A DNA stretch of 64,000 nucleotides from contig CALWAL010000007.1 of the NCBI GenBank assembly GCA_944373145.1, positions 26,005 to 90,004 of the forward strand. The letters are read 5' to 3'. The position numbers and the translations under genes are program-made. Position 1 is the stretch's first letter, and every line of letters begins with the position of its first letter. This document shows, in pieces, positions 25,672 to 41,592 of this stretch. The notes under the pieces are model-generated. The model made no database searches. It was not told where the DNA came from and was given only the letters and a program-made list of their open reading frames with translations. Source of the stretch: an uncultured Bacilli bacterium (lineage in GTDB: Bacteria; Bacillota_I; Bacilli_A; RF39; UBA660).

Positions 25672-25740
25672 TAATAGTCGATAATTCCTTGATTTTACAG
25701 GGTTTTATCAAGTTACTTTTTAATCCAAATTAGATAATTT

Positions 25741-25792
25741 AAGACTAAATCTAAATATATCGTCGCATATATTTACGGATTTAGTCTTTTTT
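25741..25792 (+). terminator. Element-supplied terminator for ppdK
   Basis: AAGACTAAATC-TAAATATA...TATATTTA-cg-GATTTAGTCTT followed by TTTT. Confidence 0.7.
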
Positions 25793-25831
25793 CGTGGAAT
25801 TCTGCGATGAAGAAATGGAGGTAATTACTGG

Positions 25832-26305
25832 GTGAAATTGATGTATTCTAGGCCAATATTAAGGGATTTATCGCAGGGCGCACGTATAGCTTTTGTAAGG
25901 CAGTTTAGGGCGAAGACACAGGATGAAATAGCTGGTTTGTTAGGTGCAACTGGCGAATGCAGAAGAAGGACTATGACAAGATATGAAAAGGGGGATAGAA
26001 ATCCTACCACAGCAAGAGCCAAGCTTATTGCTGAATTATTAAATGTTAATTATCATGCCATTAAGCAATATGATTACAAAGAACCATTGGATTTTATCTA
26101 TACTTTGTTATGGATGGAGGAGTTACTGCCTAATTATCATTTTGATGTAGATGATGTATTTATTACTGATGTGGATTTCCTTAATACTATTAATGCCTTT
26201 CTGAAAGAATGGGAGATTATGAAGAGAAAGAGAAAGAATAGGGAGATTAAGTATTCAACTTACATTGAGTGGAAGCTATCATATTCTTTCGAGGACAGAA
26301 AATGA
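25832..26305 (+). CDS. XRE-family HTH transcriptional regulator
   Basis: IAFVRQFRAKTQDEIAGLLG...MTRYEKGDRNP. ATGA overlap with the parB-like gene. Confidence 0.8.
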   Translation: MKLMYSRPILRDLSQGARIAFVRQFRAKTQDEIAGLLGATGECRRRTMTRYEKGDRNPTTARAKLIAELLNVNYHAIKQYDYKEPLDFIYTLLWMEELLPNYHFDVDDVFITDVDFLNTINAFLKEWEIMKRKRKNREIKYSTYIEWKLSYSFEDRK

Positions 26306-27141
26306 ATGGTACTAAAGTTATTAAGATAGTGGATATAGAACCGTTTAAGGATCATCCATTTATAGTTGAAGTTGATGACTCGTTGAAAGAATTGGCACAG
26401 AGTATTATGGAGAATGGTTTATTAAATCCTATTATTGTAAGAGAGAAAGGTAGTAAGTATGAGATGGTTTCTGGTCATAGAAGATTAAAAGCATTAGAGA
26501 TGAATGGTGCTGATGAAGTAGACGCATTTGTTAAAGCTTTATCCGATGATGAAGCTACTATATTTATGGTTGACTCTAATCTTCAAAGAGAGAAGATACT
26601 TCCTAGTGAAAGGGCATTTGCATATAAGATGAAGATGGATGCTTTAAAGCACCAAGGCAAAGCTTTGTCTCCTAAGGGAACAAAATCACATTCGGTCGAT
26701 GAGATAGCAGATACAAAGACTCAGGTCTTTCGTTATATAAGACTTACTTACTTGATTCCGGAACTGTTAAAGATTGTTGATGATACTGCTAGGACTAACG
26801 ATAAGCACAATATAACAATGGGTATTAGACCTGCTGTAGAATTGTCTTACTTGAGTAAGGATGAGCAAAAGTTGGTGTATTCAGAGATGATTTATGATGA
26901 TTTAAGTCCTTCACATGCACAAGCAATCCGAATAAGGAAGTTGAGTGAGAAGAAGAAACTAGATGCAGACAAGCTAGAGAAGATATTATTGGAGAAGAAG
27001 GGAAACCAACATGAGCAGATATCTTTTAATAAGGAGAATATAGAGAGTGTTTTGCCTTATGATCTGCTTAAGAGAGATAAGCGTTATATTGAAGAATATA
27101 TTATTGAAGCTATTAAGGCATATAAGAAGGGTAATAGATAG
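26302..27141 (+). CDS. ParB/RepB/Spo0J-family protein
   Basis: PFKDHPF, LAQSIMENGLLNPIIVR, YEMVSGHRR (ParB box) and NLQRE.ILPSERAFAY. Confidence 0.9.
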   Translation: MNGTKVIKIVDIEPFKDHPFIVEVDDSLKELAQSIMENGLLNPIIVREKGSKYEMVSGHRRLKALEMNGADEVDAFVKALSDDEATIFMVDSNLQREKILPSERAFAYKMKMDALKHQGKALSPKGTKSHSVDEIADTKTQVFRYIRLTYLIPELLKIVDDTARTNDKHNITMGIRPAVELSYLSKDEQKLVYSEMIYDDLSPSHAQAIRIRKLSEKKKLDADKLEKILLEKKGNQHEQISFNKENIESVLPYDLLKRDKRYIEEYIIEAIKAYKKGNR

Positions 27142-27149
27142 ACAATGTA

Positions 27150-27177
27150 AAAGGAAAGAGAGCTTTCTCTTTCCTTT
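27150..27177. terminator. Bidirectional terminator between parB and the convergent MTase gene
   Basis: AAAGGAAAGAGA-gctt-TCTCTTTCCTTT. Confidence 0.8.
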
Positions 27178-29407
27178 AGTTTTCTTCATCTTCTTCAACT
27201 GTTTCCATATCGTTAAATAGTTTCTTTGTATTTGTGTGATACCTATATTGGTATACTTCTAGTTCTCTTTTAAGAGCTAATTCAAGTTCTGTATATTTCG
27301 CTTCCATTAGTGTTAGCAATAGACAAATATCTGCTTGAGCACCTAGTGGAATAACCGGAATTGTTAATTGTCTAAAGTCTTCAAGTGTAATATAGTTAGT
27401 AGGTGAAGAAGTGTTGTTATAGTATCTTTTGATATGTTTATTGATTTTTTCTACAAAGTAGTCTGATTCTAATACATATCTTAGATATGCGGGTGATACT
27501 TCGTCTTCTATATTTTTAAATGGTCTTAATCGAAATACACTATCCGAGAATATAAAGTTAGGTTTTTGTACTATAGCTGCCTTAGTACCTTTTGAGTAAA
27601 TAGCGAATAATACATCATCCTTTTTCAACTTTCCTTTACTAATGAACTCATCTAAGTCTTCTTTTCTTATTCTTTCTGTATGAATAGTTTTGTTTTCTTT
27701 GATATACATTAGCGAACTGTCTTCCATAACAGCACCATTTTGTATTTCCTTTGTTGTAATATAACGATATGGGAAATTATCGTTGGTATCTATTTTCATG
27801 TCTTTTATTTTAGAACCAATAGTTATATCGGCAACATTAACTAGTGGAATCATTTTAATTTGATTGCTTTGTTTTAGTTGTTCTAAAGTATTGACTATAC
27901 ATTTGTTAACCCTTTTAATTTGTGTATTATACTTTAAACGTGATTTGTAATTAGCTTCTTCTTCATTCTCGTAAATGAAATCAGATAAGCATACATCTTC
28001 AATAGTTGTAAATGTGTGTTCTTTTTTATAATTAATGTAGTCACAAATATTTAATGAATATTTGTGATTTGCTATTTCTTCTGGAGTTGCTAAGTACGAT
28101 AGGTTGTCTATGCTCTTTCTACCTAATATAAGTTCTATGATGTTATCTATATTTTCATCACTAAAAGTTACTTGATTACTATTCTTAGTGCATATGTTAC
28201 CTGCATCAACAAATAATATATTGTTGTCTGTTTTGTTTTTTCGAATCAGAAACAGACATGTACCGGTATCAGTTCTTAGGAACATCTTTCTAGGTAGTAG
28301 TATTATTGTATCTATTTGATTGCTATCAACTAAATGTTTTTTTACTGCGGTTTCTTCAGGATTTGTTCTGGATAACATGTTTGGTGTGTCAATTGCCAAT
28401 GCTAATCCATTTTTATTTAGTGTGTATATGATGTGGTATATGAATGCCCAATCAGCTAACTCTTTATTAGGAAGAGGTTTGTCATTGAATCTCTCGTCGT
28501 CTTCTCGCAAAGCTGATTTATTCCAAGGTATTCCAAATGGTGGGTTAGCAAATATCAAATCGTACTTTTCTTTTTCTTCTTTATCATAAGTTAGCAATGT
28601 ATCACATTGAGAAATTTTAAAGTCCCTTACATTATGTATTATCATATTCATTCTACACAACATAGCAGGTATTGCATTTAATTCTTTGCCATAGAAAGGT
28701 ATAGTATTGTTAAATCTTGCATATTCGGTTAATAATGAACCACTTCCACAAGTAGGATCGTAGATGTTATTAGGATCAGTGATATATTGGTCTGAAATCT
28801 TTTTTAATAGTTTTACTATTGATGGTTGAGTATAGAATATGCCATTTTTAAGACTCATGGTATTGTTTGTATCTTTATTGTTTAGTAAGAATTCAAAGAT
28901 ATTACCAAATAAGTCATAATCAGATTTGTTAATGTCATAGTCAACATCTGATATAGCTTTTAATATGGTTGAATATATATTACTCCTTATATTTTGACTA
29001 GTTCCAATACCTTCTGCTTCAGTATCTATGTTTCTAAAGATTTCACATATCTCATATTTAGAAGACTGCTTGATATTCTTGAATATTGAGTTTAATGTTG
29101 AATCTAAACGACTACTATTCAATTCTTTTGCTACAATATTTTGGAATAAGTCTTCTGGGTATATGAAGAAATCTATATCACTTTGTACTTGAGATTTATA
29201 TGCTTCTGCCTCATTGTTATTTAGTTCAATATAATTTACATTGAAGCTAGTTTGAATATGCTTGATTATGCTTTCGGAAAGAAAGCGGTAGAATAAGATT
29301 AAGTATATGTATTTTTCATAACTAGTTATATCCTGACCTTTGTTATATCCTGTCAAAGCTTTTTTTAAGTTTTTTGTGATTGTTCCAACACTTTTCATTC
29401 TTCCCAT
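27176..29407 (-). CDS. Type I-like N6-adenine DNA methyltransferase (HsdM) fused to a single HsdS-like target recognition domain
   Basis: HsdM N-domain, FYTQP, DPTCGSGSLL (motif I) and ANPPFG (motif IV). The C-terminus has a TRD pattern (RYITTKEI, LKKDDVLF, YLRYVLES, FRQLTIPVIPLGAQ) plus a long helix. Confidence 0.85.
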   Translation of the reverse strand: MGRMKSVGTITKNLKKALTGYNKGQDITSYEKYIYLILFYRFLSESIIKHIQTSFNVNYIELNNNEAEAYKSQVQSDIDFFIYPEDLFQNIVAKELNSSRLDSTLNSIFKNIKQSSKYEICEIFRNIDTEAEGIGTSQNIRSNIYSTILKAISDVDYDINKSDYDLFGNIFEFLLNNKDTNNTMSLKNGIFYTQPSIVKLLKKISDQYITDPNNIYDPTCGSGSLLTEYARFNNTIPFYGKELNAIPAMLCRMNMIIHNVRDFKISQCDTLLTYDKEEKEKYDLIFANPPFGIPWNKSALREDDERFNDKPLPNKELADWAFIYHIIYTLNKNGLALAIDTPNMLSRTNPEETAVKKHLVDSNQIDTIILLPRKMFLRTDTGTCLFLIRKNKTDNNILFVDAGNICTKNSNQVTFSDENIDNIIELILGRKSIDNLSYLATPEEIANHKYSLNICDYINYKKEHTFTTIEDVCLSDFIYENEEEANYKSRLKYNTQIKRVNKCIVNTLEQLKQSNQIKMIPLVNVADITIGSKIKDMKIDTNDNFPYRYITTKEIQNGAVMEDSSLMYIKENKTIHTERIRKEDLDEFISKGKLKKDDVLFAIYSKGTKAAIVQKPNFIFSDSVFRLRPFKNIEDEVSPAYLRYVLESDYFVEKINKHIKRYYNNTSSPTNYITLEDFRQLTIPVIPLGAQADICLLLTLMEAKYTELELALKRELEVYQYRYHTNTKKLFNDMETVEEDEEN

Positions 29408-29539
29408 TATAACACCTCCATTTAATCAGTAAATATTATACCACTTTTTAACCGATTTTAGAATGTAACTACAATAATCAATGTTATTAGTTTAAATATC
29501 CCAATCTATATATCTGTCTTTTTGATTAGTCAAAATATA

Positions 29540-29558
29540 TCCCAAGTAACACTAGGGA
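29540..29558. promoter_or_regulatory. Operator-like palindrome, copy 1
   Basis: TCCCAAGTaacACTAGGGA, 17/19 identical to 36924-36942. Confidence 0.6.
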
Positions 29559-29662
29559 AGTTTTTGAAGTGAATTATGATGGTTGAATGTGCTCAGAAAT
29601 GTTTTAGTTTTTATAATAATTAATACCACTTTTTGTATATTTTAGAGTAAATTGGTTACTAA

Positions 29663-29844
29663 ATTTCGTACAATACTATGACAATTGTTAGATTACCTTT
29701 CGAGTTTATTATGGTGTTTTTTACTTTTTTGATAGTTTAGTGAAAAATGTCTTTTAGATTTCGTATAGTAATGTGACAGTTGATGGATTGTCTGGTTAGT
29801 TCTTCACCTTCACAACTTTTAAGATAATCCATCAATAATTGTCA
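29663..29844. repeat. Imperfect 32-bp direct repeat plus long inverted repeat
   Basis: 29663-29694 and 29758-29789 match at 25/32. TGACAGTTGATGGATTGTC (29774-29792) is inverted, with a small insertion, at 29823-29844. Confidence 0.55.
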
Positions 29845-30290
29845 GTTTAATTTTATATTACTATGATGGTTGATGAATCATCGGATTTACAGCGACGTTT
29901 TTACAACTTAGTGCGAGATTGCCAACTCGTTAAACGCAATAACAATACTAAAGATACTAATACTAATAATCAAAACATTAATTTTAATAAGAATATTAAC
30001 AAGAGAAAGATAAAAGATAATATTCAGTGATCTAGACGGTATTTTGTAATTTAGAGAATGGGGATATTTAAACATTAAGAACACAGGAACCCCAATTATA
30101 TTTATAGTATCGACGTACAATTTCACTAGAAGATGTATATGCAGATATAAGATGATTATTTTATTTGATTAAGCTGGTCAAGCGGAGATTTTGAAGTGAC
30201 TATGGTTATTTATACTAGTTTTGCTTTAAAGTCTCTCAAACCGGTTTAAAGTTGCTAAATATTTTGAATTTAGAGAGGATTTGAGAATGT

Positions 30291-30680
30291 ATGAAAGCAC
30301 ATTGGATTGTTAAACTTAAGAATCCATTTAATGGAATGAAGCTGGTTGCTTATGAAGATGGACGTGTCTATGTTGGTGGAACTGGACCTTTAATTGGTAA
30401 GCTTAAATCAACTTCTATGAAGAAAATTAGATATTACATCAACGAGTATGCCCATTATATCAAGATAGTTGGATATGAAGTTCAGGATATATATGGATTT
30501 ATAGCCAAGTTCTGGGATAATAGCAATGTTAAGCGTGATGACCTGACGGTTAAAGGTTGGCCTTACGAGCGTGAATTCCTAGAGATTATATTTAACAAGA
30601 ATTCATATCGTAAGTTTTTGATTGGTGATGGTGAGTTTGTTTCTATTATGCATGATTATTTATTAACTTCGTTAGATTAA
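30291..30680 (+). CDS. Hypothetical protein
   Basis: 129-aa ORF with a GAGG RBS upstream. Confidence 0.65.
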   Translation: MKAHWIVKLKNPFNGMKLVAYEDGRVYVGGTGPLIGKLKSTSMKKIRYYINEYAHYIKIVGYEVQDIYGFIAKFWDNSNVKRDDLTVKGWPYEREFLEIIFNKNSYRKFLIGDGEFVSIMHDYLLTSLD

Positions 30681-30695
30681 GCATGCAGAGGAATG

Positions 30696-30900
30696 AAACT
30701 GGTTTTGTTTTTATCAGCAACTGCTGCAGGTAAAACTGGTTCTGGGGATCGTTGCATGAAGCGTTGCTTGATTCGGTGGATCCGGCGTAGCTTGTAGGAG
30801 AGCAAGTTACCGGTTTTACCTAATCCTATTTGTAAGAACATTACCTAGTGGTATTTATACTTTTATATGGATTTTTAGTGCAACGAAGTGTGGGTTGCCT
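30696..30900. other. GC-enriched structured non-coding segment of unknown function
   Basis: 13-bp stem AGGTAAAACTGGT/ACCGGTTTTACCT (30728-30821) encloses sub-hairpins. A GCAAC...GTTGC hairpin lies near 30880-30898. Confidence 0.45.
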
Positions 30901-31012
30901 TTTCTGCTGTCTTCACAATGTGCTGGAGTAAGTAATAATATTTATATTCTGTTCTATTTCCTATTGATTAAGTTTTACTTTTAAGGTTAAATACAAAATC
31001 AAAGGTGAATAG

Positions 31013-31360
31013 ATGATGAAAGATACAAAGATAGATAGATATATTGATAAATCACTTCTTCCAAAACATCACTATATAACACTAGAACTAGTTAGAAGGA
31101 AGTTTATCAGCAGTGAATCGGATTTTGATTTATACCTGTATGATGCTCTATTTGAAGAATTATTGTTGAGATATGACTTTAAGACAGTTATAGTTGCAAC
31201 AAATTACGTTGCTACGAGAGTTAAACAGCAGCAATTTTGCTCGGAAGATGGAGCCAAGATCGAGAACTTATATGCCTATTTTAGGTCTTCTATTACATTT
31301 AACCTAAGAAAGATTACTAATCAGATAGATTTTGATTGGTTGAATGATGATTATGATTGA
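31013..31360 (+). CDS. Hypothetical protein, possibly resembling a replication-initiator C-terminal domain
   Basis: 115-aa ORF with AAGGTGA RBS and an IENLYAYFRSSI motif. Confidence 0.6.
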   Translation: MMKDTKIDRYIDKSLLPKHHYITLELVRRKFISSESDFDLYLYDALFEELLLRYDFKTVIVATNYVATRVKQQQFCSEDGAKIENLYAYFRSSITFNLRKITNQIDFDWLNDDYD

Positions 31361-31593
31361 TTTCCTTATAGTTTTTCTACCTTTTTTAGGGTTTTTGCAG
31401 CTTTTTTATATATTTTAGTAGAACATCCTATTGTAGAAATGTCCTGCTATTATGAGAAAAATATTACGATTTTGAAACGTCTTGATTTTTGCTTCTTTTC
31501 TCTGTTAGTGGGTATTTCTATTACTTTGTTCGAAAGATTCTTCAAATGGGCAGAGAATGCCGAATCAGGTGGTTATTTGAGAGGAGTTGTACT

Positions 31594-32025
31594 ATGAGAA
31601 CTTGGCTGGTTAAGCTTGAAAGATACGATAAGAACTGGATTACCTTGTATGATGATGCAAATGTATTAACCTATGGAAGAAAGAAACCTTATGTTTTGAA
31701 GAAATCAGCGATGGAAATGGTACAAGAATTGATTAGTGAGTATTCTGCTGATGATTCAACTGCTGATTTTGATCAAGATTGCATTATCAAATGTAATATC
31801 AATCCGAAACTAGTGAGCCATAATCGTTTGTTTTTTAATCAGATGGTGGCAATATTATTTGATTTTAGAAATATTAAGCATCCAGATAGTCGTCTAGGTC
31901 CTATATTAGAGGAAATAGAACGTTTAAGAGCAGATGGAACACTACAAGAGATGATAGACACAGATGGTCAAGATGCTGTTATAGAACAATTAATTATGAA
32001 TTTTAGTGATAGAGATAGCGATTAA
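31594..32025 (+). CDS. Hypothetical protein
   Basis: GAGGAG RBS precedes ATG 31594. A terminator follows. Confidence 0.65.
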   Translation: MRTWLVKLERYDKNWITLYDDANVLTYGRKKPYVLKKSAMEMVQELISEYSADDSTADFDQDCIIKCNINPKLVSHNRLFFNQMVAILFDFRNIKHPDSRLGPILEEIERLRADGTLQEMIDTDGQDAVIEQLIMNFSDRDSD

Positions 32026-32122
32026 TGAGTGATTGCTCTCTTTTTATTTGGTTTTAGAGATGAATTATATGTTTATTTTATCAACTTTTTATGGTACAAC
32101 ATGGTTAGTATGGAGGTAAAAT

Positions 32123-32443
32123 ATGTTTAGACCTAAGACTGATGATGACATTACTGAAGAAGAATTTGTAACGATATTATCACCTTTCGTTGATAAATGT
32201 CATGAATACATAGAGAAGAAACTTATTCCAGTATATGTTGCTTACTATATAGCAGAAGCATACAATACAAGTTCTTTAGAAGAGGATACTTATGATATTT
32301 TCATAAACTCTGCCTTATGTTCATTTAATATTGAACCTGCTAATTATGAAACTATCAAATCTGATACTACAAAGCTGCTAGAGGATGAATATCACTTAAG
32401 AGTAATAAGCGAAGATCCACTAGATTTTGAAAGAATATTCTGA
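32123..32443 (+). CDS. Hypothetical acidic protein
   Basis: GGAGGT RBS, 106 aa. Confidence 0.65.
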   Translation: MFRPKTDDDITEEEFVTILSPFVDKCHEYIEKKLIPVYVAYYIAEAYNTSSLEEDTYDIFINSALCSFNIEPANYETIKSDTTKLLEDEYHLRVISEDPLDFERIF

Positions 32444-32567
32444 TCCTATGTTATTTGACAATAGATGCTTTAGTTGGAATTATAGTTTAAGAATTATTGT
32501 TTATTTCATTTAAATAGCTGTATAATTATTTAAAGCACGTTATTATACAAAGCGGATGGTGATGTAA

Positions 32568-32795
32568 TTGAATAAGCTTATTCTTGAGTTTCCTACATTC
32601 GAAGAGATAAAAGAAGTTTTATCTAAGGAACTACCTGATATCATTGAGATAACATTTAAGAGTCAAGAAAACAATGCTAAAGAGTTTGAAATAATATATT
32701 ATTTGGTTAATTGTACTGATTACTTTTTTGAATCGTTAACGCCAACTGATGATTCACGTACAAACTTTATAGCACACTTTAAAAGGAAGAGTTAA
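32568..32795 (+). CDS. Hypothetical protein
   Basis: 75-aa ORF with TTG start and GGTGA RBS. Its stop lies in a bidirectional terminator (32781-32808). Confidence 0.55.
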   Translation: MNKLILEFPTFEEIKEVLSKELPDIIEITFKSQENNAKEFEIIYYLVNCTDYFFESLTPTDDSRTNFIAHFKRKS

Positions 32796-32824
32796 TTCTC
32801 TTCCTTTTCTATGATTAATAGACT

Positions 32825-33097
32825 TTAATCGATTTTTTTTGTTACGTTACTAGATTCTGGTTCTTCAAATAATTTTGATAACGGTATTCCAAGAACTTTA
32901 GCAAACTTATATGTAGTACCGATACTTGCTGTTTGAAATACTTTTTCAGATTCAAGATTTTTTATGAAACTCAAAGCATACAAACTTTTTTCAGCGAGTT
33001 GTTCTTGTGTCATACCTGCCTCTTTTCTATACTTTTTTAGATTTTTAGCTAATATTGTGTAAGCATAGTTTTCATCAATTTGGTTTTTATTATTCAT
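32825..33097 (-). CDS. XRE-family HTH regulator, divergent from the zinc-ribbon genes
   Basis: LAKNLKKYRKEAGMTQEQLAEKS...FIKNLES...AKVLGIPLSKLF. Confidence 0.88.
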   Translation of the reverse strand: MNNKNQIDENYAYTILAKNLKKYRKEAGMTQEQLAEKSLYALSFIKNLESEKVFQTASIGTTYKFAKVLGIPLSKLFEEPESSNVTKKID

Positions 33098-33277
33098 TTG
33101 TCCCACCCATAACAATTATCTCAATAATAAGTTAAATATTTAGTATGTTGTTCGTAGACTTTTGTGGTATAATAATTATATAGTAAGTTGTTTTCATGGA
33201 AGTAGTTTAATGATTTTGTTTACCGAAATATTTGAAGATAGTAGCTTTTATGAAGAAAGTTAGTGATGGTGATTGAT

Positions 33278-33814
33278 ATGGCATTAATTAAATGTGTTGA
33301 GTGCGGAAAAGAGATTAGTGATACAACCGATATATGCGTTCATTGTGGTGCACCTACTTCTATTTCAACTAAGCGTAACGATAATGTTGTTACTAAATCT
33401 AAGAGGAACAATAAACGTAACATCGTCATTTTTATTGTTGTATGTTTATTAGTTTTTTGTATTGTAATTATTGTTGTACCTTTTTTTATAAACCTTAGAA
33501 ATAAGGATATATTAGCTTCTGATACCTTAGATGCTGAATATTCAGCACCTGAGCTAGAATATATTTATGGGGATGCGATGAGAGTTATATTTGAATTTAA
33601 AGATGATGGAACAGCAATTTATCAACGTTGCAATGCTAAAACTGATGCTTGTGCAGATCCTCATTCATATACTTATAAGAAATACGGATTAGATGTAGAT
33701 ATTTATGGCAGTGGTAATAACCTTTTATATGATTGTTCTTTAAAAGACTCTGGCAAGTTTCTAAATTGCTACGATATGAGTGGTCAATATCAAGATTATG
33801 CAAAGACTAATTAA
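33278..33814 (+). CDS. Zinc-ribbon header protein 1 (single TM plus extracellular domain)
   Basis: MALIKCVECGKEISDTTDICVHCGAP, followed by a TM helix IVIFIVVCLLVFCIVIIVVPFFI. Confidence 0.8.
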   Translation: MALIKCVECGKEISDTTDICVHCGAPTSISTKRNDNVVTKSKRNNKRNIVIFIVVCLLVFCIVIIVVPFFINLRNKDILASDTLDAEYSAPELEYIYGDAMRVIFEFKDDGTAIYQRCNAKTDACADPHSYTYKKYGLDVDIYGSGNNLLYDCSLKDSGKFLNCYDMSGQYQDYAKTN

Positions 33815-33841
33815 TTTAAGAGTAAGAAAGGAAGGAAAATT

Positions 33842-34192
33842 ATGGCACTAATTAAATGTAAAGAATGTGGAAAAGAGATTAGTGATACTGCTAATGAATG
33901 TGTTCATTGTGGATGTCCTTTAGGTAAAGTGAAGTTCTATACTTCTAATAATTGGACAGGTATAGCGAGTAGATATATTATCTCTAATAATAATGGACAA
34001 GTTCTTGCTAAACTAAAAGGTGGCGAAGAATTTGAAATAAATATTGATGAAGATACCAAATTTTATGTTCGATGCAATACTACTCTTAGCAGAAAAAAAC
34101 ATGAAGTTGTAGCATATGCATGTAAGATTAATAAGTTTCTAGTCGAAATAACTTTTATGGGAGCAAGTACTCGTGTATCAGAGATTAATTAA
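33842..34192 (+). CDS. Zinc-ribbon header protein 2 (soluble beta-rich tail)
   Basis: MALIKCKECGKEISDTANECVHCGCP. No TM. Confidence 0.8.
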   Translation: MALIKCKECGKEISDTANECVHCGCPLGKVKFYTSNNWTGIASRYIISNNNGQVLAKLKGGEEFEINIDEDTKFYVRCNTTLSRKKHEVVAYACKINKFLVEITFMGASTRVSEIN

Positions 34193-34212
34193 TATTTTAA
34201 AGGAGGAAAATT

Positions 34213-34665
34213 ATGGCATTAATTAAATGTAAGAGTTGTGGTAAAGAAATTAGCGATAAGTCTACTAAATGTGTTCATTGTGGTTGTGATACTGATTATT
34301 CAATTACATATTTTTGTTCTGAGTGTGGTAAAGAGTTTGATAACATTAAATGTATGAATTGTGGTTATTCTCCTAATAATAAGAAAGATACTACTAATCA
34401 ATCAGCGAATGTTGGTTTTAATTTTAAACCATTATTAATAAGTTTAGCAGTAGGAATTATTACTTTTATTATCATGTCCTATGTTGAAGGGATTTTTATT
34501 GTGGACATATCTGTGTCAATAATACTATTTTTAACTTGTTTGGGAGCTCTAACTGGTTCTTTGGATGATTTTGTTGATACAATGGACGATTTTCATGCAA
34601 GTACAGATAAAGATCCTTATAAAAGAGCTTTGTACAAGGAAATTAAGAAGAATAACAAGAAGTAA
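34213..34665 (+). CDS. Zinc-ribbon header protein 3 (double zinc ribbon plus two TMs)
   Basis: MALIKCKSCGKEISDKSTKCVHCGCD, second ribbon CSECG...CMNCG, then two hydrophobic segments. Confidence 0.8.
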   Translation: MALIKCKSCGKEISDKSTKCVHCGCDTDYSITYFCSECGKEFDNIKCMNCGYSPNNKKDTTNQSANVGFNFKPLLISLAVGIITFIIMSYVEGIFIVDISVSIILFLTCLGALTGSLDDFVDTMDDFHASTDKDPYKRALYKEIKKNNKK

Positions 34666-34721
34666 TTGCTATAAAAGACTATTTACTATGGTACAATATA
34701 CTTAACTGAGGAGGTTCAATT

Positions 34722-35420
34722 ATGACTAAAAAAATTGGAATTAAGAAAATTGAAACTAGTATTCCTTGTGATGTTTTTGTTTCGAGTATAGATGGAATCG
34801 TTGGTGCATCAAAAGGTGTTAATCTAGATGTTTACTTCACTTCTAAGAAAATTTATGAATTAGAAGATACCATGTTTGTTGTACTTGACATGTATGATGG
34901 TACCGGTGAAATGAAAGCTTTATTAGTGGGTAATAGAGATAAAGAATTTACTTCACTAGTTGATGGTATTAAGATTGATGCCGATGTAAGATATAGAATA
35001 AGTGGTAATGTTTCTATACCTTCTGACACTGATGATGTGGAGTTACCTTTTATGAATGATATTAAGAATAATAAGTTGTTTTGTATTTATGCTTTTCAAA
35101 GAAATCCTAAATCAACGTATTGTGAACTAAAACATCTTGCTAGGACAGAGATTGAGAAAGTTCGTGATGGTATAAGTACTGTTCAACAAAGTATTATTGA
35201 TAGTCTTAAGTATGATAAAAGTATTTCTATGGAAGAACTTCATATCATGTATTGTTTTGATGGTGATGGTGGTTTTGATCTAGACATACATCAATTTTAT
35301 GATTTATATGTAAGCCCATTGATAAAGAGTAAAGAAATTAAGGTGTGCAATTTAAAACAATGTTCTAAAGAGAAACCTTTACCAATGCCAGAATTTGAGC
35401 TTATGTATAATTGTAATTAA
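34722..35420 (+). CDS. Hypothetical protein with possible OB-fold
   Basis: GAGGAGG RBS. VLDMYDGTGEMKALL...YRISGNV resembles OB-fold nucleic-acid-binding domains. Confidence 0.6.
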   Translation: MTKKIGIKKIETSIPCDVFVSSIDGIVGASKGVNLDVYFTSKKIYELEDTMFVVLDMYDGTGEMKALLVGNRDKEFTSLVDGIKIDADVRYRISGNVSIPSDTDDVELPFMNDIKNNKLFCIYAFQRNPKSTYCELKHLARTEIEKVRDGISTVQQSIIDSLKYDKSISMEELHIMYCFDGDGGFDLDIHQFYDLYVSPLIKSKEIKVCNLKQCSKEKPLPMPEFELMYNCN

Positions 35421-35486
35421 TAGACAGAGATTAATTCTCTGTTTTTTCTAAAGACGCTGTAATTTTGTTTAATGTATGTTTTAATG

Positions 35487-35678
35487 TAGAAGATGCTACA
35501 TATGCTGTAGTACCTGAAGACAACATCAAGAGGTAGCTCCTCTTGTGAAGATACATGATGTGGTTTGATTCCGGTTAAATCATGGAAGGGTTATAAGTGA
35601 ACGATTGTCCCTAGTGCAGTAAACAAGCGCCGCCATTTAGAACTTTAGCAAGATAGACTTTGTAGTCTGTCTTTTTAT
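35487..35678 (+). ncRNA. Candidate ~190-nt structured non-coding RNA, family unrecognised
   Basis: Possible extended -10 (TGtTTTAAT) upstream, four successive hairpins and an intrinsic terminator AAGATAGACT-ttgt-AGTCTGTCTT-TTT. No ORF. Confidence 0.4.
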
Positions 35679-35831
35679 TTGGCCTAATATGGGTGTAAAC
35701 GAAATCATTTGATTTCTTTTATATTAGAAACTTGTCCAAAATGCGTTGCTTTTTATCTGAATTTAAGTGATTTATATAAACGAAATGTGAAAGATGTTTT
35801 CTTTTACACTTTAGAAAAGAGGTAATTTAAT

Positions 35832-36434
35832 ATGGAAAGCAAAGTATGGGGTTACTGCCGCTGTTCCACCAACGATTCAAAACAAGATGTCAAGTATCAG
35901 ATTGATGCATTAATTGATAAAGGTGTAGATATATCTAATATAAGGTATGAGTATATTTCTGGTAGGAAGGAACATAGACCTGGACTTGATGCACTGTTAG
36001 AAGAAATGAATGAGGGTGATACTTTAATAGTTACTGATATTACTCGTTTGTGTAGGAATACAAAGGTTTTGTGTGAAATAATTGATTTGATTATTGCAAA
36101 GAAATTTAGGCTTATTGTTGGAAGTATTGATATAGATTGTAGGAATGGTAGTTTAGATCCTATGATTGAAGGTATGCTAAAAATTAACGCGGTTTTTGGG
36201 GAGATGGAAGCAAAACTGAAAATACATCAAATCCATTTAGGATTAGCTACAGCTGTTAAGGCTGGTAAGAAGTTAGGACGTCCTAAGTCAACTTATGATG
36301 ATATTCCAAAGGTGTTTATGCAGTATTATCCTAAGTATAAGAATGGAACTCTAAACAAAATGGCTTTTGCTAGAGTTACTCAATTATCGTATCCAACTAT
36401 TTATAAGTACCTAGATATTGTTGAGAATGCTTAG
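35832..36434 (+). CDS. Small serine recombinase (resolvase/invertase family)
   Basis: GYCRCST catalytic motif, EYISG...RPGL, GDTLIVTDITRLCR, GKKLGRP and C-terminal HTH. Confidence 0.93.
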   Translation: MESKVWGYCRCSTNDSKQDVKYQIDALIDKGVDISNIRYEYISGRKEHRPGLDALLEEMNEGDTLIVTDITRLCRNTKVLCEIIDLIIAKKFRLIVGSIDIDCRNGSLDPMIEGMLKINAVFGEMEAKLKIHQIHLGLATAVKAGKKLGRPKSTYDDIPKVFMQYYPKYKNGTLNKMAFARVTQLSYPTIYKYLDIVENA

Positions 36435-36569
36435 TAGTAGTTATTATTAAGAGAACTTTTTGCTAAAGTTTTCTTTTTTTTTGATTAATCTGAGTTTTAT
36501 TCAAAATATTTCGTATAACAGTATAGTTGCTTTTTCCATAATGGGCAACTAGAAAGTAAGGTGATTTGT

Positions 36570-36893
36570 ATGAATTATGGTTATTATGTAAAAGGAAGAA
36601 GTGAGATGGAAAATTGGGATACTTATTATGATGTGTATTGTTATGTCCCAGATGACGAGAAAATCTTTTGCGACGAAATAGGCAGTAGTAAAAATTTGGA
36701 TTATCTTCTTGATATTATGGGAGAAGGTGATAGCCTTCATCTCACTAATCTCTTTGATTTAGGAAGAAGTTGGGATAAGGTTATTAAGGCTTTGTACATT
36801 CTTAATGATAATAATATTAGATTGTTTGTTATGAACGATGAGGTTAATCTTGATGATGTAATATATGTAATTACAGGTGCCGAAGTAGCTTAA
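36570..36893 (+). CDS. Degenerate resolvase-like protein lacking the catalytic YxRxS motif and the HTH
   Basis: IFCDE...LDYLLDIMGEGDSLHLTNLFDLGRS...IRLFV matches the resolvase core. The N-terminus reads MNYGYYVKGRS. AAGGTGA RBS precedes ATG 36570. Confidence 0.65.
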   Translation: MNYGYYVKGRSEMENWDTYYDVYCYVPDDEKIFCDEIGSSKNLDYLLDIMGEGDSLHLTNLFDLGRSWDKVIKALYILNDNNIRLFVMNDEVNLDDVIYVITGAEVA

Positions 36894-36923
36894 TAAGCTA
36901 CTTTTTTAATGTTTGATTTTTAT

Positions 36924-36942
36924 TCCCAAGTAGGACTAGGGA
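36924..36942. promoter_or_regulatory. Operator-like palindrome, copy 2
   Basis: TCCCAAGTaggACTAGGGA, upstream of the microprotein-integrase genes. Confidence 0.6.
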
Positions 36943-37145
36943 GAATTTTCACACTATTGTCTGGTAAGGATGTACGTATGTCTTTTAGTGAGAATATTTA
37001 TGTATTAATGCTTGATAATTCGCTGTTTTTATAAGGTTTTTAGCACTTTTTTCAACTTTTTGCATTTAAAATTGCGAAACGCCTGACACAAATCGTAACA
37101 ACTAACAAGCTCGTTTGAGAGTTTTGGAAAGTGTGGTGGATTATT

Positions 37146-37307
37146 GTGTCTAATAGGATTGATTTCAAACTTAGTGATTCAAATAAGAAAATACTTAATA
37201 TGAATCTTGCTGTTGAGATTATTAGAAACTTATTATTTGTAAATGAAGTTATAACTTCAGAAGAGTTTCAAAATGTTATTAAGTGTGCTAATCGTAGTGT
37301 CAAATGA
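37146..37307 (+). CDS. 53-aa SHOCT-like microprotein upstream of the integrase (absent from the ORF track)
   Basis: GTG start behind GGTGGA. Sequence is MSNRIDFKLSDSNKKILNMNLAVEIIRNLLFVNEVITSEEFQNVIKCANRSVK*. Confidence 0.55.
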   Translation: MSNRIDFKLSDSNKKILNMNLAVEIIRNLLFVNEVITSEEFQNVIKCANRSVK

Positions 37308-37351
37308 TTGTATAAAAGATATTAAGATTAAAATAGAGGTGAGAAATTATT

Positions 37352-39079
37352 ATGGATTCAATATGTTTTTATGCTCGTGTTTCCACGAAGCATGAATCTC
37401 AATTATATTCTTTTGAGAACCAAGTTCAATTATATGATATGTTTTTAGTAGAGCATTCTCATGAGAATTGGGAAGTATATGATAGATATTTTGACAAAGG
37501 TATAACAGGTACTTCGATGAAAAAGCGTAAGGGTTTTTTAAGGATGATAGATGATGCTAAACGTGGTTGCTTTAATACTATTATAACCCGTGAGGCTTCT
37601 CGTTTTGCAAGAAATGTTCAAGATACTCTTAATGTTTCAATTGATCTTGTTGAGAGAGGTATTAGACTTATTTTTATTGAAGATAAGCTAGATACAAAAC
37701 AAGATGAAGATTGGAAAAGTAGATTAACACAACTTGCTATTGATGCTGAAAAGCATTCAAAAACACAATCAGTCAACGCTAAAGCAGGTCAAAAAATATC
37801 TAGAGCGAAACATGTATTATATGGTAATGGGAATGTATTAGGTTATGATAGAGTAGGAAAGGAATATGTCATTAATGCTGAGCAAGCTAAGGTTGTTAGA
37901 TTGATTTTTGATATGTGTTTACGTGGAAGCGGAAGTAGAGATATTCAATACGAACTAGAGAAGAAAAACTATCTTACATCAACCGGTTTAGAGAACTGGA
38001 ACGTTGCAACCATCACAAGAATACTTCGTAACTCGATATATTGTGGTACTGTTGTTTACAATAAAAGTTATAGTAGTGATTATTTACATCAAAAGCGTAT
38101 TCTTAATAAAGGAGAAGTAGAGCAACTCGTTGTAGAAGATAGAGTTCCGGCAATTGTTTCTAAAGAAGATTTTGCTAGAGCACAGGAGATACTTGATAGC
38201 CATAAAACTAATAATAAAGGTGTAGTGACTACGGTTGGGAAACCACCGACTACTATCTTTGGGAAGAAACTCAAATGTAGTTGTGGATATAGTATGCAGA
38301 AAAAGAAATATCATACATATAAGGATGGACATACTGCCTATTGTTATCAATGCTATGACCAAGTAAATAGAGGCTCTTTTACCTCTAGAAAGAAACACGG
38401 TGTAAGTGTTGAAGGTGTTTGTGATACAAAAATAATTCCAGATTGGAAATTGAAATTAGCATCCTATACTATATTTGATATGTTAATTGATAGAAGAGAG
38501 GATATTATCGATATTATAGATAAACTACTAGAATCAGCGGTTGATGATGATAAAAATCTTCTATGTAGTGAGCAGGAGTTTTATGAAAAAGAAATAGAAG
38601 CCTTGAAGAGAAGGATATCTAAGTTAATGGATTTATATACTAATGAATATATAACTCTGAATGAGTTTAACGAAAAGAAGAAAGAAATAGATACCACAAT
38701 GAATGAATATAATGCTAAACTAAACAAACTTATAACTAATAAGTGTATAACTCCAAAAACAATTAGTGAACGTTTAGCTGAATGTAAAGATATAATTACT
38801 AATAGTTTTATGAATTATAAAGATGGAACTACATATGAGTTGTTAGTAGATTCTTTTGTTGATAGAATTATTGTAAGTAATGATAAGCTTGAATGGCATA
38901 TGAGATTAACAAAAGAAATTAAAATGCCGCTTGATGATGTTATAAGAGAGAAAGAAGTGTTTATAGGTACATTATCACTTACTAAAGATGACGCTACATA
39001 TTATTCTAAGTATTGCAATGATTTATCTAGAGTATGCTTTGATAAAGCATTGCTGGTTGATATATATCTTATGTTCTGA
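37352..39079 (+). CDS. Large serine recombinase (integrase)
   Basis: FYARVST...Q, YFDKGITGT, REASRFAR, LGYDR, recombinase domain (ILRNSIYCG), zinc ribbon (KCSCG...YCYQC) and coiled coil. Confidence 0.95.
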   Translation: MDSICFYARVSTKHESQLYSFENQVQLYDMFLVEHSHENWEVYDRYFDKGITGTSMKKRKGFLRMIDDAKRGCFNTIITREASRFARNVQDTLNVSIDLVERGIRLIFIEDKLDTKQDEDWKSRLTQLAIDAEKHSKTQSVNAKAGQKISRAKHVLYGNGNVLGYDRVGKEYVINAEQAKVVRLIFDMCLRGSGSRDIQYELEKKNYLTSTGLENWNVATITRILRNSIYCGTVVYNKSYSSDYLHQKRILNKGEVEQLVVEDRVPAIVSKEDFARAQEILDSHKTNNKGVVTTVGKPPTTIFGKKLKCSCGYSMQKKKYHTYKDGHTAYCYQCYDQVNRGSFTSRKKHGVSVEGVCDTKIIPDWKLKLASYTIFDMLIDRREDIIDIIDKLLESAVDDDKNLLCSEQEFYEKEIEALKRRISKLMDLYTNEYITLNEFNEKKKEIDTTMNEYNAKLNKLITNKCITPKTISERLAECKDIITNSFMNYKDGTTYELLVDSFVDRIIVSNDKLEWHMRLTKEIKMPLDDVIREKEVFIGTLSLTKDDATYYSKYCNDLSRVCFDKALLVDIYLMF

Positions 39080-39181
39080 CAACTAAGTAATACACTTAGT
39101 TGTTTTTATGTTATAATAATGTAGTAATATTTAGATGTAGTCTGATATGTGATATATCTTCCTCTTATATCCTACAACCGT

Positions 39182-39189
39182 ACAAGCTG
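39182..39189 (+). other. attR core of the large element, which is also the left core of the relic island
   Basis: ACAAGCTG, followed in frame by AIKEKNNK* (stop 39213-39215) and a terminator at 39230-39262. Confidence 0.8.
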
Positions 39190-39373
39190 CTATCAAAGAA
39201 AAAAACAATAAATAACACATAATAAATATAGACTGAGATTAAAATTAATCTTAGTCTTTTTTGATATGTGATAGTAAAAGATAACAATATATATAATGTT
39301 AAAATATCTTTTTATAGTATAATAGAATTAATAGATAAATAGTAATTTATTGTTATGATTGGAGGAAAAGAAA

Positions 39374-39727
39374 ATGGGAAAAGTAATTGTATTATTTGAG
39401 GTTACAATAAAAGATGGAAAGAAAGATGATTATTTAAAGAGAGCTGAAATCTTAAAAGCACATTTAAAGAATATGAAAGGTTTTATATCTGCTGAAAGAT
39501 TTCAATCTTTAGCAAGCGAAAAGAAAGTATTAAGTATGACAGTATGGGAAAATGAGGAAAGCGTTCAAATTTGGAGAAATTTATCTGAACATAGAGAAAG
39601 CCAATTAGCAGGTAGAATGGAAGATTTTGAAGATTACAAAATAACAGTAGTTACACCAATTCGTGAATATGGAATGAATGATAGAACTAATGCACCTAAA
39701 GATTCAAATGAATATTTTAACGTATAA
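39374..39727 (+). CDS. Antibiotic biosynthesis monooxygenase (ABM)-family protein
   Basis: GFISAERF, SMTVWENEES...WRNLSEHRESQ..GR. GGAGG RBS. Confidence 0.85.
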   Translation: MGKVIVLFEVTIKDGKKDDYLKRAEILKAHLKNMKGFISAERFQSLASEKKVLSMTVWENEESVQIWRNLSEHRESQLAGRMEDFEDYKITVVTPIREYGMNDRTNAPKDSNEYFNV

Positions 39728-39754
39728 TAATTATGCCAGAAAGAGTTATAATTT

Positions 39755-40390
39755 ATGAATAATTATTTTGAATATGGAGATAAAGAAATAAATTATCTAA
39801 AAAACAAAGATAAAAAATTAGCAAAAGTAATTGATAATTTAGGTTTTGTTGAAAGACCAGTAGATACAGATATATTTGAATCAATAGTTCATATGATGGT
39901 TGGACAACAAATTTCAACAAAGGCACATAAAACTATTTGGAAAAGAATGTTAGATTATTATAATATAGTGAAACCTATAAATATTTCAAAAACAAGCATA
40001 GGACAAATGCAAAGTTTTGGAATGACATATATAAAAGCTAACAATATTATAAATTTTTCAAATAAAGTATTAAATAATGAAATAAACCTTGAAGAACTTA
40101 ATAATAAAACAGATAATGAAGTAATAAGAGAGTTATCAAATATAGATGGTATTGGAGAATGGACAGCAGAAATGATAAGGCTACATTCAATGCAAAGAAA
40201 AGATATATTTAGTTATAAAGATTTAGCGATTCATAGAGGGCTAAAACTGATATATCATCATAAGAAAATTGACAAAAAGCTATTTGATAAATATAAAAAA
40301 AGATTTAGCCCTTATGGTAGTATAGCAAGCATTTATATATGGGCAGTAGCAGGATGTAAAATACCGAATTTAGAGGAGGTTTTGGAATGA
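39755..40390 (+). CDS. alkA: DNA-3-methyladenine glycosylase II (AlkA, HhH-GPD family)
   Basis: MVGQQIS and helix-hairpin-helix LSNIDGIGEWTAEM...DLAIHRG, FSPYGSIASIYIW. Confidence 0.85.
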   Translation: MNNYFEYGDKEINYLKNKDKKLAKVIDNLGFVERPVDTDIFESIVHMMVGQQISTKAHKTIWKRMLDYYNIVKPINISKTSIGQMQSFGMTYIKANNIINFSNKVLNNEINLEELNNKTDNEVIRELSNIDGIGEWTAEMIRLHSMQRKDIFSYKDLAIHRGLKLIYHHKKIDKKLFDKYKKRFSPYGSIASIYIWAVAGCKIPNLEEVLE

Positions 40391-40926
40391 TATATACGAC
40401 ACACTATAAAGCTCCAGTAGGAGATATATTGTTAGCAAGTAAAGATGAAAAGCTAATTGGATTATGGATTGAAGGACAAAAGTATTATCTATCTAATTTA
40501 AAAGAAGAAATACAAGAAAATGATAAAGATGAAACATTGGTAAAAACCAAAAAATGGTTAGATAGATATTTTAATGGAGAAAAGCCTAAAATAGATGAAT
40601 TAGATTTAGCACCAATAGGAAGTGATTTTAGACAAGAAGTATGGAAAATATTATGCAAGATCCCTTATGGAGAAGTAACTACTTATAATGATATATCAAA
40701 AGAAATTGCTGAAAAAAGAGGAATAAAAAGAATGTCTGCACAAGCTGTGGGTGGTGCAGTAGGTCATAATCCTATTTCAATTATTATTCCTTGTCATAGA
40801 GTTGTAGGAACAAATGGTAGTTTAACAGGATATGCAGGAGGAATAAATAAAAAGATATTTTTACTAAAACACGAATATGTAAATATGAGTAATTTGTTTG
40901 TTCCAAAGAAAGGAACTGCTCTATGA
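40387..40926 (+). CDS. ogt: Methylated-DNA--protein-cysteine methyltransferase
   Basis: IPYGEVTTY, AQAVGGAVGHNP and active site IIPCHRV. Confidence 0.93.
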   Translation: MIYTTHYKAPVGDILLASKDEKLIGLWIEGQKYYLSNLKEEIQENDKDETLVKTKKWLDRYFNGEKPKIDELDLAPIGSDFRQEVWKILCKIPYGEVTTYNDISKEIAEKRGIKRMSAQAVGGAVGHNPISIIIPCHRVVGTNGSLTGYAGGINKKIFLLKHEYVNMSNLFVPKKGTAL

Positions 40927-41465
40927 AAAGGTGTAAATGGTGTAATCTAAATAATCCAAATTATATTGAATACCACGATAACGAATGGTGCAGACCAAAC
41001 TTTGATGATAAGTATTTATATGAAATGCTAATATTGGAGTCTTTTCAAGCAGGATTATCTTGGGAATGTGTTTTAAATAAAAGGGATAGTTTTAGAAAAG
41101 CATTTGATAATTTTGATATTGATAAAGTTTGCTCTTATGATGAAAATAAGATAAACGAATTATTGAATAATAAAGGCATTATTAGAAATAAATTAAAAAT
41201 AAAAGCAAGTATAAATAATAGTATAATCTTCAAAACGATAGTTAATGAATATGTGACATTCCATAATTATTTAAAATCATTTACACAAGATAAAACAATT
41301 TATGAAATAGATAAAACAGGTAACGAATTGTCTGATAATATATCAAATGACCTAAAAAAACGAGGAATGAAATTTGTAGGAAGTACAATTATATATTCTT
41401 ATTTACAGGCAATAGGGGTTATCTATTCACACGATGAAGAATGTAGTTTGTATAAAGCAAATTAG
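40923..41465 (+). CDS. tag: DNA-3-methyladenine glycosylase I
   Basis: RCKWC, YHDNEW, LESFQAGLSW and FVGSTIIYSYLQAIG...H. Confidence 0.93.
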   Translation: MKRCKWCNLNNPNYIEYHDNEWCRPNFDDKYLYEMLILESFQAGLSWECVLNKRDSFRKAFDNFDIDKVCSYDENKINELLNNKGIIRNKLKIKASINNSIIFKTIVNEYVTFHNYLKSFTQDKTIYEIDKTGNELSDNISNDLKKRGMKFVGSTIIYSYLQAIGVIYSHDEECSLYKAN

Positions 41466-41592
41466 AGCGACAACTTACAATTTATCAAGTAGATGAAAAA
41501 ATATTTTTTGGTACAATTAAGATGCGTATTGAAAAAATAAGCCAAATAGTATTTGTTTTTGACAAAAAACACTCCACGAATATTACAGTGCT

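Follow-up and report, generated by a model that had tools for sequence, protein, structure and literature searches.

A four-gene recombination module

The DNA analyzed here (the window) is a 64,000-nucleotide stretch of contig CALWAL010000007.1, from an uncultured Bacilli bacterium with a low-GC (~30%) genome of 1.29 Mb. Domain and open reading frame (ORF) analysis of the window showed a module of four plus-strand genes: a small serine recombinase of the resolvase/invertase type (the resolvase), a 107-aa protein with a dead serine-recombinase core (the mini), a small ORF (orf58), and a large serine recombinase (LSR) that acts as the integrase (Table 1). An earlier note, made from the sequence alone, had described the resolvase, the 107-aa ORF and the LSR as a co-oriented three-gene cluster. 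All three are real genes on the plus strand, and the motifs it quoted, GDSLHLTNLFDLGR and YYVKGRS where YxRxS is expected, are right; however, the conserved gene orf58 had been overlooked, so the cluster is a four-gene module.

Copies of the module are found at the right end of islands whose cargo varies and includes restriction-modification systems and zinc-ribbon proteins. The mini has its slot at the island's integrase end, after the resolvase and before the orf58-LSR operon. The resolvase carries the motifs GYCRCST and TRLCR and a C-terminal helix-turn-helix (HTH), and it matches PHROG 125 ('DNA invertase', E 9e-42). The LSR has FYARVST, a Recombinase domain, a CxC...CxxC motif and a coiled-coil-like stretch. 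NCBIfam and PHROG contain no family for the mini or orf58, and Pfam gave nothing for orf58.

Table 1. Features of the module and of the island ends (window coordinates).
Feature	Position	Strand	Remarks
Resolvase (small serine recombinase, resolvase/invertase type)	35832-36434	+	200 aa, intact; PF00239, E 6e-25
Mini	36570-36893	+	107 aa; sub-threshold Pfam hit; dead serine-recombinase core
orf58	37146-37307 (53 aa) or 37131-37307 (58 aa)	+	small helical ORF immediately upstream of the LSR
LSR (integrase)	37352-39079	+	575 aa, intact; Resolvase and Recombinase domains
Resolvase-mini intergenic region	36435-36569 (135 bp)	+	nearly invariant across all module variants
Terminator-like hairpin of the resolvase	within 36435-36569	+	identified by eye
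Palindrome with ACGAAAT motif	36497-36518		in the invariant intergenic region; overlaps the mini -35
Promoter-like -35/-10	36500-36527	+	match 9/12; candidate mini promoter region
Terminator-like hairpin and T-run (intrinsic type)	36882-36904	+	overlaps the mini stop codon
Palindromic motif TCCCAAGTAGGACTAGGGA	36925-36943		downstream of the mini terminator; conserved in divergent modules
Inverted half-site cluster, AAACGAAAT / AAAAGAAAT	35693-35809		directly upstream of the resolvase gene; well conserved in module variants
Left junction core GCACAAGC	25639-25646	+	within the last codons of ppdK
Right junction core ACAAGC	39182-39187	+	same core as the left end

The mini is a serine-recombinase core without an intact active site

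The mini scored 15.7 bits (E 0.017) against Pfam PF00239, below the gathering threshold of 23.3. A profile of the mini family searched against the PDB recovered the catalytic domain of Sin (E 4.7e-9) and gamma-delta resolvase (1e-3), and the sequence homology to the serine-recombinase catalytic domain covers residues ~4-100. An AlphaFold2 (AF2) model of the mini (predicted local distance difference test, pLDDT, 83.7) was searched with Foldseek, and the top 30+ PDB matches were all serine-recombinase catalytic domains (resolvase, Sin, Tn3, Gin), with template modeling (TM) scores of 0.63-0.75. The mini is a true homologue of this domain, despite the sub-threshold Pfam score, and shares the fold of the small serine recombinases (Sin, gamma-delta/Tn3 resolvase, Hin/Gin; PF00239). 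It retains the structural motifs of resolvases, namely the N-terminal beta-strand M-x-YGY, YYD, GD and LG, and its N-terminus MNYGY is common to genuine Bacilli resolvases, such as one in locus L079.

Catalytic residues were compared by aligning 13 minis with four active recombinases. The nucleophilic serine position is occupied by G, T, R, N, E or L in 13/13 minis; all four real recombinases have R-x-S. The window mini reads GYYVKGR at the nucleophile motif, with Val as its R8 equivalent. In place of R68 stands Asp, within a DLG motif conserved among the minis, and the R71 equivalent is kept only in the clade of the window mini and in one other member. Two of the three conserved catalytic arginines (the R8 and R68 equivalents) are therefore lost together with the serine nucleophile, which bears out the earlier description of the protein as catalytically dead, and from these residues the mini is predicted to be unable to cut DNA.

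In the structures of gamma-delta, Sin and Hin, dimers and tetramers are formed through helix E. The last helix of the mini spans residues 94-102 in the AF2 model, and profile positions up to ~101 align with gamma-delta residues up to ~109. The protein ends approximately where helix E starts, and only a stub (about the first 10 residues) is left. Oligomerization through the shared domain, a premise of the earlier note, is thus weak, as pairing runs mainly via helix E; judging from the model, the mini probably does not pair by the canonical helix-E interface. The reported lack of an HTH was confirmed, with no HTH hit in the Pfam domain search and a protein that stops at residue 107. Unlike Sin, gamma-delta, Hin and Gin, the mini has neither the serine nucleophile nor an HTH, has Val for R8 and Asp for R68, and keeps only a stub of helix E; it is a homologue of recombinases and not itself a recombinase.

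The mini is maintained as a gene

The mini could start at ATG 36570 (107 aa) or at GTG 36561 (110 aa). We take ATG 36570 as the true start because every homologue starts with MNYGY and GTG 36561 falls within the ribosome-binding site (RBS) AAGGTGA, which occupies 36558-36564, five bases before the ATG. The RBS, the full-length open frame and the hairpin with a T-run at the stop codon are all present, as the earlier note had said. The intergenic region upstream is 99% identical in a comparison of modules whose flanking genes are 85-89% identical; across 10 loci it shows substitutions in four columns only and short indels, mostly in T runs. An RNA element in this region was considered and dropped, since Rfam had no match to it and its predicted RNA fold was not significant (z-score -0.87). 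A hairpin homologous to the mini terminator follows the resolvase stop codon in L081, a module without a mini. Copies of TCCCAAGTAGGACTAGGGA occur twice in L081 (~4548-4566 and ~4610-4628) and in L017 at ~1305-1325. At 8318-9748 in L074 and L075, an insertion sequence (IS; DDE_Tnp_1 transposase, 476 aa) lies between the mini and orf53, in islands that are otherwise identical and whose four module genes are intact, so the mini and orf53 are separate transcription units.

Nine nucleotide alleles of the mini were found in 22 loci, all full length, with no stop codons or frameshifts. The alleles differ by up to 15% in nucleotides without indels, whereas the far less diverged surrounding intergenic DNA already has indels. 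Random truncations among homologues, named in advance as evidence for a pseudogene, were not seen in these 22 loci. Close homologues form only three clusters in a set of 5.8 billion proteins, and an exhaustive profile search added small homologues that are 127-158 aa long and 25-35% identical; these retain the size, fold motifs and position. A tree places the 13 sampled minis in one clade (support 98/96) against 28 real catalytic domains, with long branches as a caveat. Truncated genuine resolvases (L050, L079) still have YxRVST and DRLGR, unlike the minis.

Selection was estimated from the ratio of nonsynonymous to synonymous rates (omega). For the mini in the window clade, where the set of close alleles is small, omega is 0.61-0.67 with a confidence interval (CI) that includes 1; the flanking genes give 0.04-0.10 (resolvase) and 0.04 (LSR). 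Within the clade, amino acid replacements in the core are more conservative than expected at random (P 0.013-0.044). Paralogues in related elements have omega values of 0.21-0.30 for the 135-aa and 142-aa types and 0.53-0.59 for the 139-aa type in two divergent comparisons, all with CIs below 1, the closest 139-aa pair being the exception; these values are similar to those of the neighboring excisionase (Xis) and integrase genes. Purifying selection is thus significant in the wider family, although neutrality is not rejected in the mini's own clade. With 22 intact loci, a single clade and constrained paralogues, the 107-aa ORF is a maintained, functional gene of a small dead-core family, not a decaying fragment.

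The window allele is very acidic (net charge -13, pI 4.07). Across the family the net charge ranges from -13 to +9 and the pI reaches 9.7; a DNA-mimic role was rejected as a family property because this acidity is not general.

Relatives lie beside both serine and tyrosine integrases

Relatives of the mini always lie 0-2 genes upstream of an integrase, either serine or tyrosine, which supports the earlier assignment of the mini to a recombination module. The same four-gene module occurs in L017 and L067-L072, with minis 33-35% identical to that of the window. L021 has a resolvase followed further on by a RecA-like gene, a mini, two ORFs and an LSR, and its resolvase and that of the window are sisters in the tree. 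The elements of L018 and L051-L054 have a RecA-like ATPase, three tandem minis (139, 142 and 135 aa), an HTH_17 Xis and a tyrosine integrase; L055 has the same order with two minis. These tandem paralogous dead minis span 5151-6408 in L018, 6152-7408 in L051 and 3978-4795 in L055. In L018 and L051 the start codon of the first mini overlaps the stop codon of the RecA/KaiC-like ATPase gene by one base, and there is a four-base overlap between the first and second minis; the same coupling links the ATPase gene and the two minis of L055. In each case the HTH_17 Xis and the tyrosine integrase come next. The only recombinases that Pfam annotates in the sequenced part of L051-L055 are tyrosine recombinases. 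No RecA-like gene was found among the Pfam-annotated ORFs of the ppdK islands (the window and L067-L076).

The element of G037 carries a resolvase and, further on, a RecA-like gene, an end-to-end fusion of a mini with HTH_17, and a tyrosine integrase; like L021, it also has a small serine resolvase. The fusion partner is the Xis-type HTH_17 that is otherwise the downstream neighbor of the mini, and the fusion, seen in one genome, hints at a joint function of the two. The 135-aa minis lie directly upstream of the HTH_17 gene and the tyrosine integrase, and in G037 mini and HTH_17 form one protein. The window differs from this arrangement, as its mini has no HTH and orf58 stands in the position of the HTH_17 gene, which is absent. 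IS607-family TnpA similarly joins a MerR-type HTH and a serine-recombinase core in one polypeptide (PMC6188088); however, its HTH is N-terminal and its core is active, whereas the G037 fusion has the reverse order and a dead core.

The mini profile, searched class-wide against 400 genomes, found only ordinary resolvases of ~200 aa, and the two short frames examined were truncated resolvases of the active type, so minis are rare in species-representative genomes. The phage collection contained no mini, and the matches in the plasmid collection were ordinary Sin-like resolvases. The literature searched held no description of a conserved family of dead serine-recombinase cores lacking the pairing helix.

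The mini slot is exchangeable and the mini is dispensable

Between the window and L008-type modules, the LSR is 99-100% and orf58 98% identical in protein, and the intergenic regions are 97-99% identical in nucleotides. The minis are 74% identical in protein, with a nonsynonymous divergence (dN) of 0.15 against 0.004 for the LSR. The comparison with L017 showed 98% nucleotide identity over the resolvase and the upstream intergenic region, ending exactly at nucleotide 16 of the mini; past that point, protein identity is 35% for the mini, 85% for orf58 and 66% for the LSR. The L017 resolvase, 99.5% identical to that of the window, stands beside a 128-aa mini that belongs to a different paralogue clade in the tree. 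The deep types match across 22 loci, with the 107-aa mini beside LSR-575 and the 128-aa mini beside LSR-580. The slot is thus exchangeable, its occupant in different islands being one or the other of two deeply divergent members of the family.

LSR-based locus searches gave only two informative distant modules, L081 and L082. L081, from an uncultured Bacilli genome, has an LSR 59% identical to that of the window and the order resolvase, 293-bp gap, orf54 and LSR, with no remnant of a mini, so the mini is dispensable in one related module. The constant linkage that the earlier note had asked about holds for the close modules (22/22) but not for L081.

orf58 is the better candidate for a directionality factor

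The orf58 frame encodes 53 aa from GTG 37146, preceded by a GGTGG RBS, or 58 aa from GTG 37131. Its AF2 model consists of two helices at low confidence (pLDDT 65), too weak for a fold search. Homologues 87-98% identical are found in ~45 metagenomic contigs, and orf54 of L081 is a homologue at ~60% identity, kept where the mini is absent. orf58 is constant with the LSR and the mini is not. Because L081 keeps an orf58 homologue without a mini, orf58 is the better candidate, and on its conservation and position it is likely that orf58, not the mini, is the core directionality factor of the LSR. SprB of SPbeta (58 aa) is of similar size.

Known recombination directionality factors (RDFs), such as SPbeta SprB, phiC31 gp3, Bxb1 gp47 and TP901-1 Orf7, resemble the mini in being small proteins from the element of the integrase. 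They adopt many unrelated folds (PMC12286644), so a resolvase-like fold is no bar to such a role; a factor with a serine-recombinase core was not found in the literature searched, including the passages of PMC12286644 consulted. In contrast to these factors, the mini accompanies tyrosine integrases as well and has no copy in one related LSR module, and orf58 fits better by size and position.

Possible roles of the mini

In the best overall explanation, the mini serves the excision/integration module as an accessory without catalytic activity that is both maintained and exchangeable; we hold this reading tentatively, at somewhat short of an even chance. Its observed part, that is, a family with a dead core, its own promoter region and terminator, a defined slot, exchangeability and dispensability, is held jointly with high confidence. 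The mechanism is more doubtful. The fusion to Xis and the fixed position suggest a role in the control of excision and integration through protein contacts. The mini would modulate the choice of the element between excision and integration by binding proteins, with no catalysis of its own. Its target would be the integrase or a small partner that binds DNA or sets directionality, and poisoning of the neighboring resolvase would not be its mode of action; orf58 would serve as the core directionality factor of the LSR. Taken jointly, these steps are possible but fall further below an even chance. An unlikely extension is that excision depends throughout the family on a factor in two parts, with a reused dead recombinase core for protein interaction and HTH_17 or, in the window, orf58 for DNA binding; in G037 the two parts are one chain. 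Such a factor would work with serine or tyrosine integrases, and by swapping mini alleles behind the invariant promoter the island would tune the time of its excision, or the host in which it occurs.

Several observations weigh against the accessory reading. The elements that bear minis share a related backbone, so the contexts next to integrases are not independent. The translational coupling of minis to a RecA-like ATPase in tyrosine-integrase elements could mean a role outside site-specific recombination, and the wide spread of charge in the family gives no evident single biophysical mode. Recent constraint on the window clade is weak or mixed, as its omega is not separable from 1, and minis 26% apart in protein beside near-identical LSR and orf58 proteins would be an uncommon pattern if the mini had to fit both.

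The earlier note had offered two mechanisms, a new type of directionality factor and a dominant-negative modulator. As the RDF of the neighboring LSR, the mini would bind the second DNA-binding domain and the coiled-coil base and switch the enzyme to excision. A small protein near the LSR in the same element, the matching of deep mini and LSR types, the diversity of known RDF folds (PMC12286644) and the relative fused to an Xis-type HTH all fit this idea; however, the type match is a single evolutionary event, L081 has an LSR and orf54 without a mini, the partner that stays constant, directly before the LSR, is orf58, and minis 26% apart stand beside LSRs 99-100% identical and also accompany tyrosine integrases. 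The idea is weakened to the point of being quite improbable, although we keep it. The dominant-negative proposal, in which the dead core mixes into dimers or tetramers of the resolvase or LSR and blocks catalysis, fared worse. The fold is that of the catalytic core, the mini adjoins two serine recombinases of the active type, and the elements of G037 and L021 likewise have a small serine resolvase; nevertheless, most of the helix that forms the dimer and tetramer interface is gone, resolvase and mini alleles have been freely recombined (99.5% against 35% identity in L017), and the minis of L051-L055 occur with only tyrosine recombinases among the annotated genes. We regard it as very improbable.

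A role outside the module's own recombination was also considered. The mini could be a conflict factor, a fast-evolving decoy or inhibitor directed against the serine recombinase of a rival element or against host defense. This would account for the local hyper-divergence, the exchangeable slot behind an invariant promoter region, the tandem arrays of 2-3 paralogues, the independence from the element's own integrase type, the variable restriction-modification cargo of the islands and the acidity of the window allele. The acidity is not family-wide, however, the paralogues in tyrosine-integrase elements are under ordinary purifying and not diversifying selection, and the fusion with an Xis-type HTH of the element itself points inward and not outward, so this reading is unlikely. 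A slimmer prospect than the directionality factor is that the mini is an accessory of the RecA-like ATPase, or of element replication or maintenance, left in the window island as a passenger. Minis in L018, L051-L055 and G037 overlap or abut the ATPase stop codon within one operon, and in L021 a gap of 153 bp separates the mini from the ATPase gene before it; yet the ppdK islands (the window and L067-L076) keep the mini with no annotated RecA-like gene, and there the mini has its own strongly conserved promoter region. Least probable of all is a functionless, decaying pseudogene of a duplicated resolvase. The window-clade omega, the absence from L081 and the sub-threshold Pfam score could be read in this way, but the intact frames at up to 15% nucleotide divergence, the distant homologues that hold size, motifs and position, the single clade, the constrained paralogues and the conserved RBS, promoter region and terminator have already largely refuted it.

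LSRs are widely used genome-engineering tools, and the control of their directionality is an active question. The module offers two small candidate partners, orf58 and the mini, for one integrase with a defined target, the ppdK 3' end. A mini family beside serine and tyrosine integrases, and once fused to Xis, would be a clear reuse of the recombinase fold for a non-catalytic job. If the mini modulates excision, it would be a new type of control part; if not, it would be a pseudoenzyme.

Insertion site, candidate binding sites and cargo

Loci with the 575-aa type of LSR all share one sequence as far as ...CCGTACAAGC, beyond which they continue into differing ppdK-tail-like sequences, and the ppdK junctions of several hosts, where at least four ppdK tails occur, have identical LSR proteins. 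This shared end, the varied tails and the same core in the ppdK of the window identify the LSR as the integrase of a 13.5-kb island (~25647-39187) that targets the ppdK 3' end. Island DNA gives ppdK a replacement tail and stop codon (to 25671; ..AVIKNGRN), and the displaced original tail and its stop codon (..AAIKEKNNK) lie past the right core, to ~39216. An empty ppdK site was not found within the genus, where relatives are too divergent and G016 differs left of 39666. Locus L058 of the same genus (G016:C4) is 99% identical to the window right of that position (39666-41493) and unrelated to the left, so 39188-39665, which holds most of the ABM gene, may also be variable.

The half-site cluster upstream of the resolvase consists of a 26-bp palindrome (35696-35721) and a second pair (35774-35809), with the ACGAAAT motif that also occurs in the intergenic palindrome upstream of the mini. 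AWAMGAAAT has 23 matches across the window, four of them within 820 bp at this cluster. The half-sites are candidate res-like binding sites of the resolvase. Palindromic sites flanking the resolvase gene are arranged similarly to hix-hin-hix, and these are candidate binding or crossover sites. Orientation variants that would indicate an invertible segment with the resolvase or the mini promoter were not seen, as all ~20 contigs have the same orientation.

The cargo of the island family is variable and defense-like. The window carries an HTH protein, a ParB_N protein and a 743-aa N6 methylase (25832-29407), L068 a Type I HsdM/S/R system, and L014 and L069 a DEAD helicase with an N6_N4 methylase. 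At 33263-34665 lie three tandem zinc-ribbon genes (183, 116 and 150 aa) whose products all begin MALIKC.ECGKEISD and whose 5' ends are an 89-nt repeat. They are followed at 34722-35420 by a conserved 232-aa protein that travels with the module and has a 322-aa homologue in L081.

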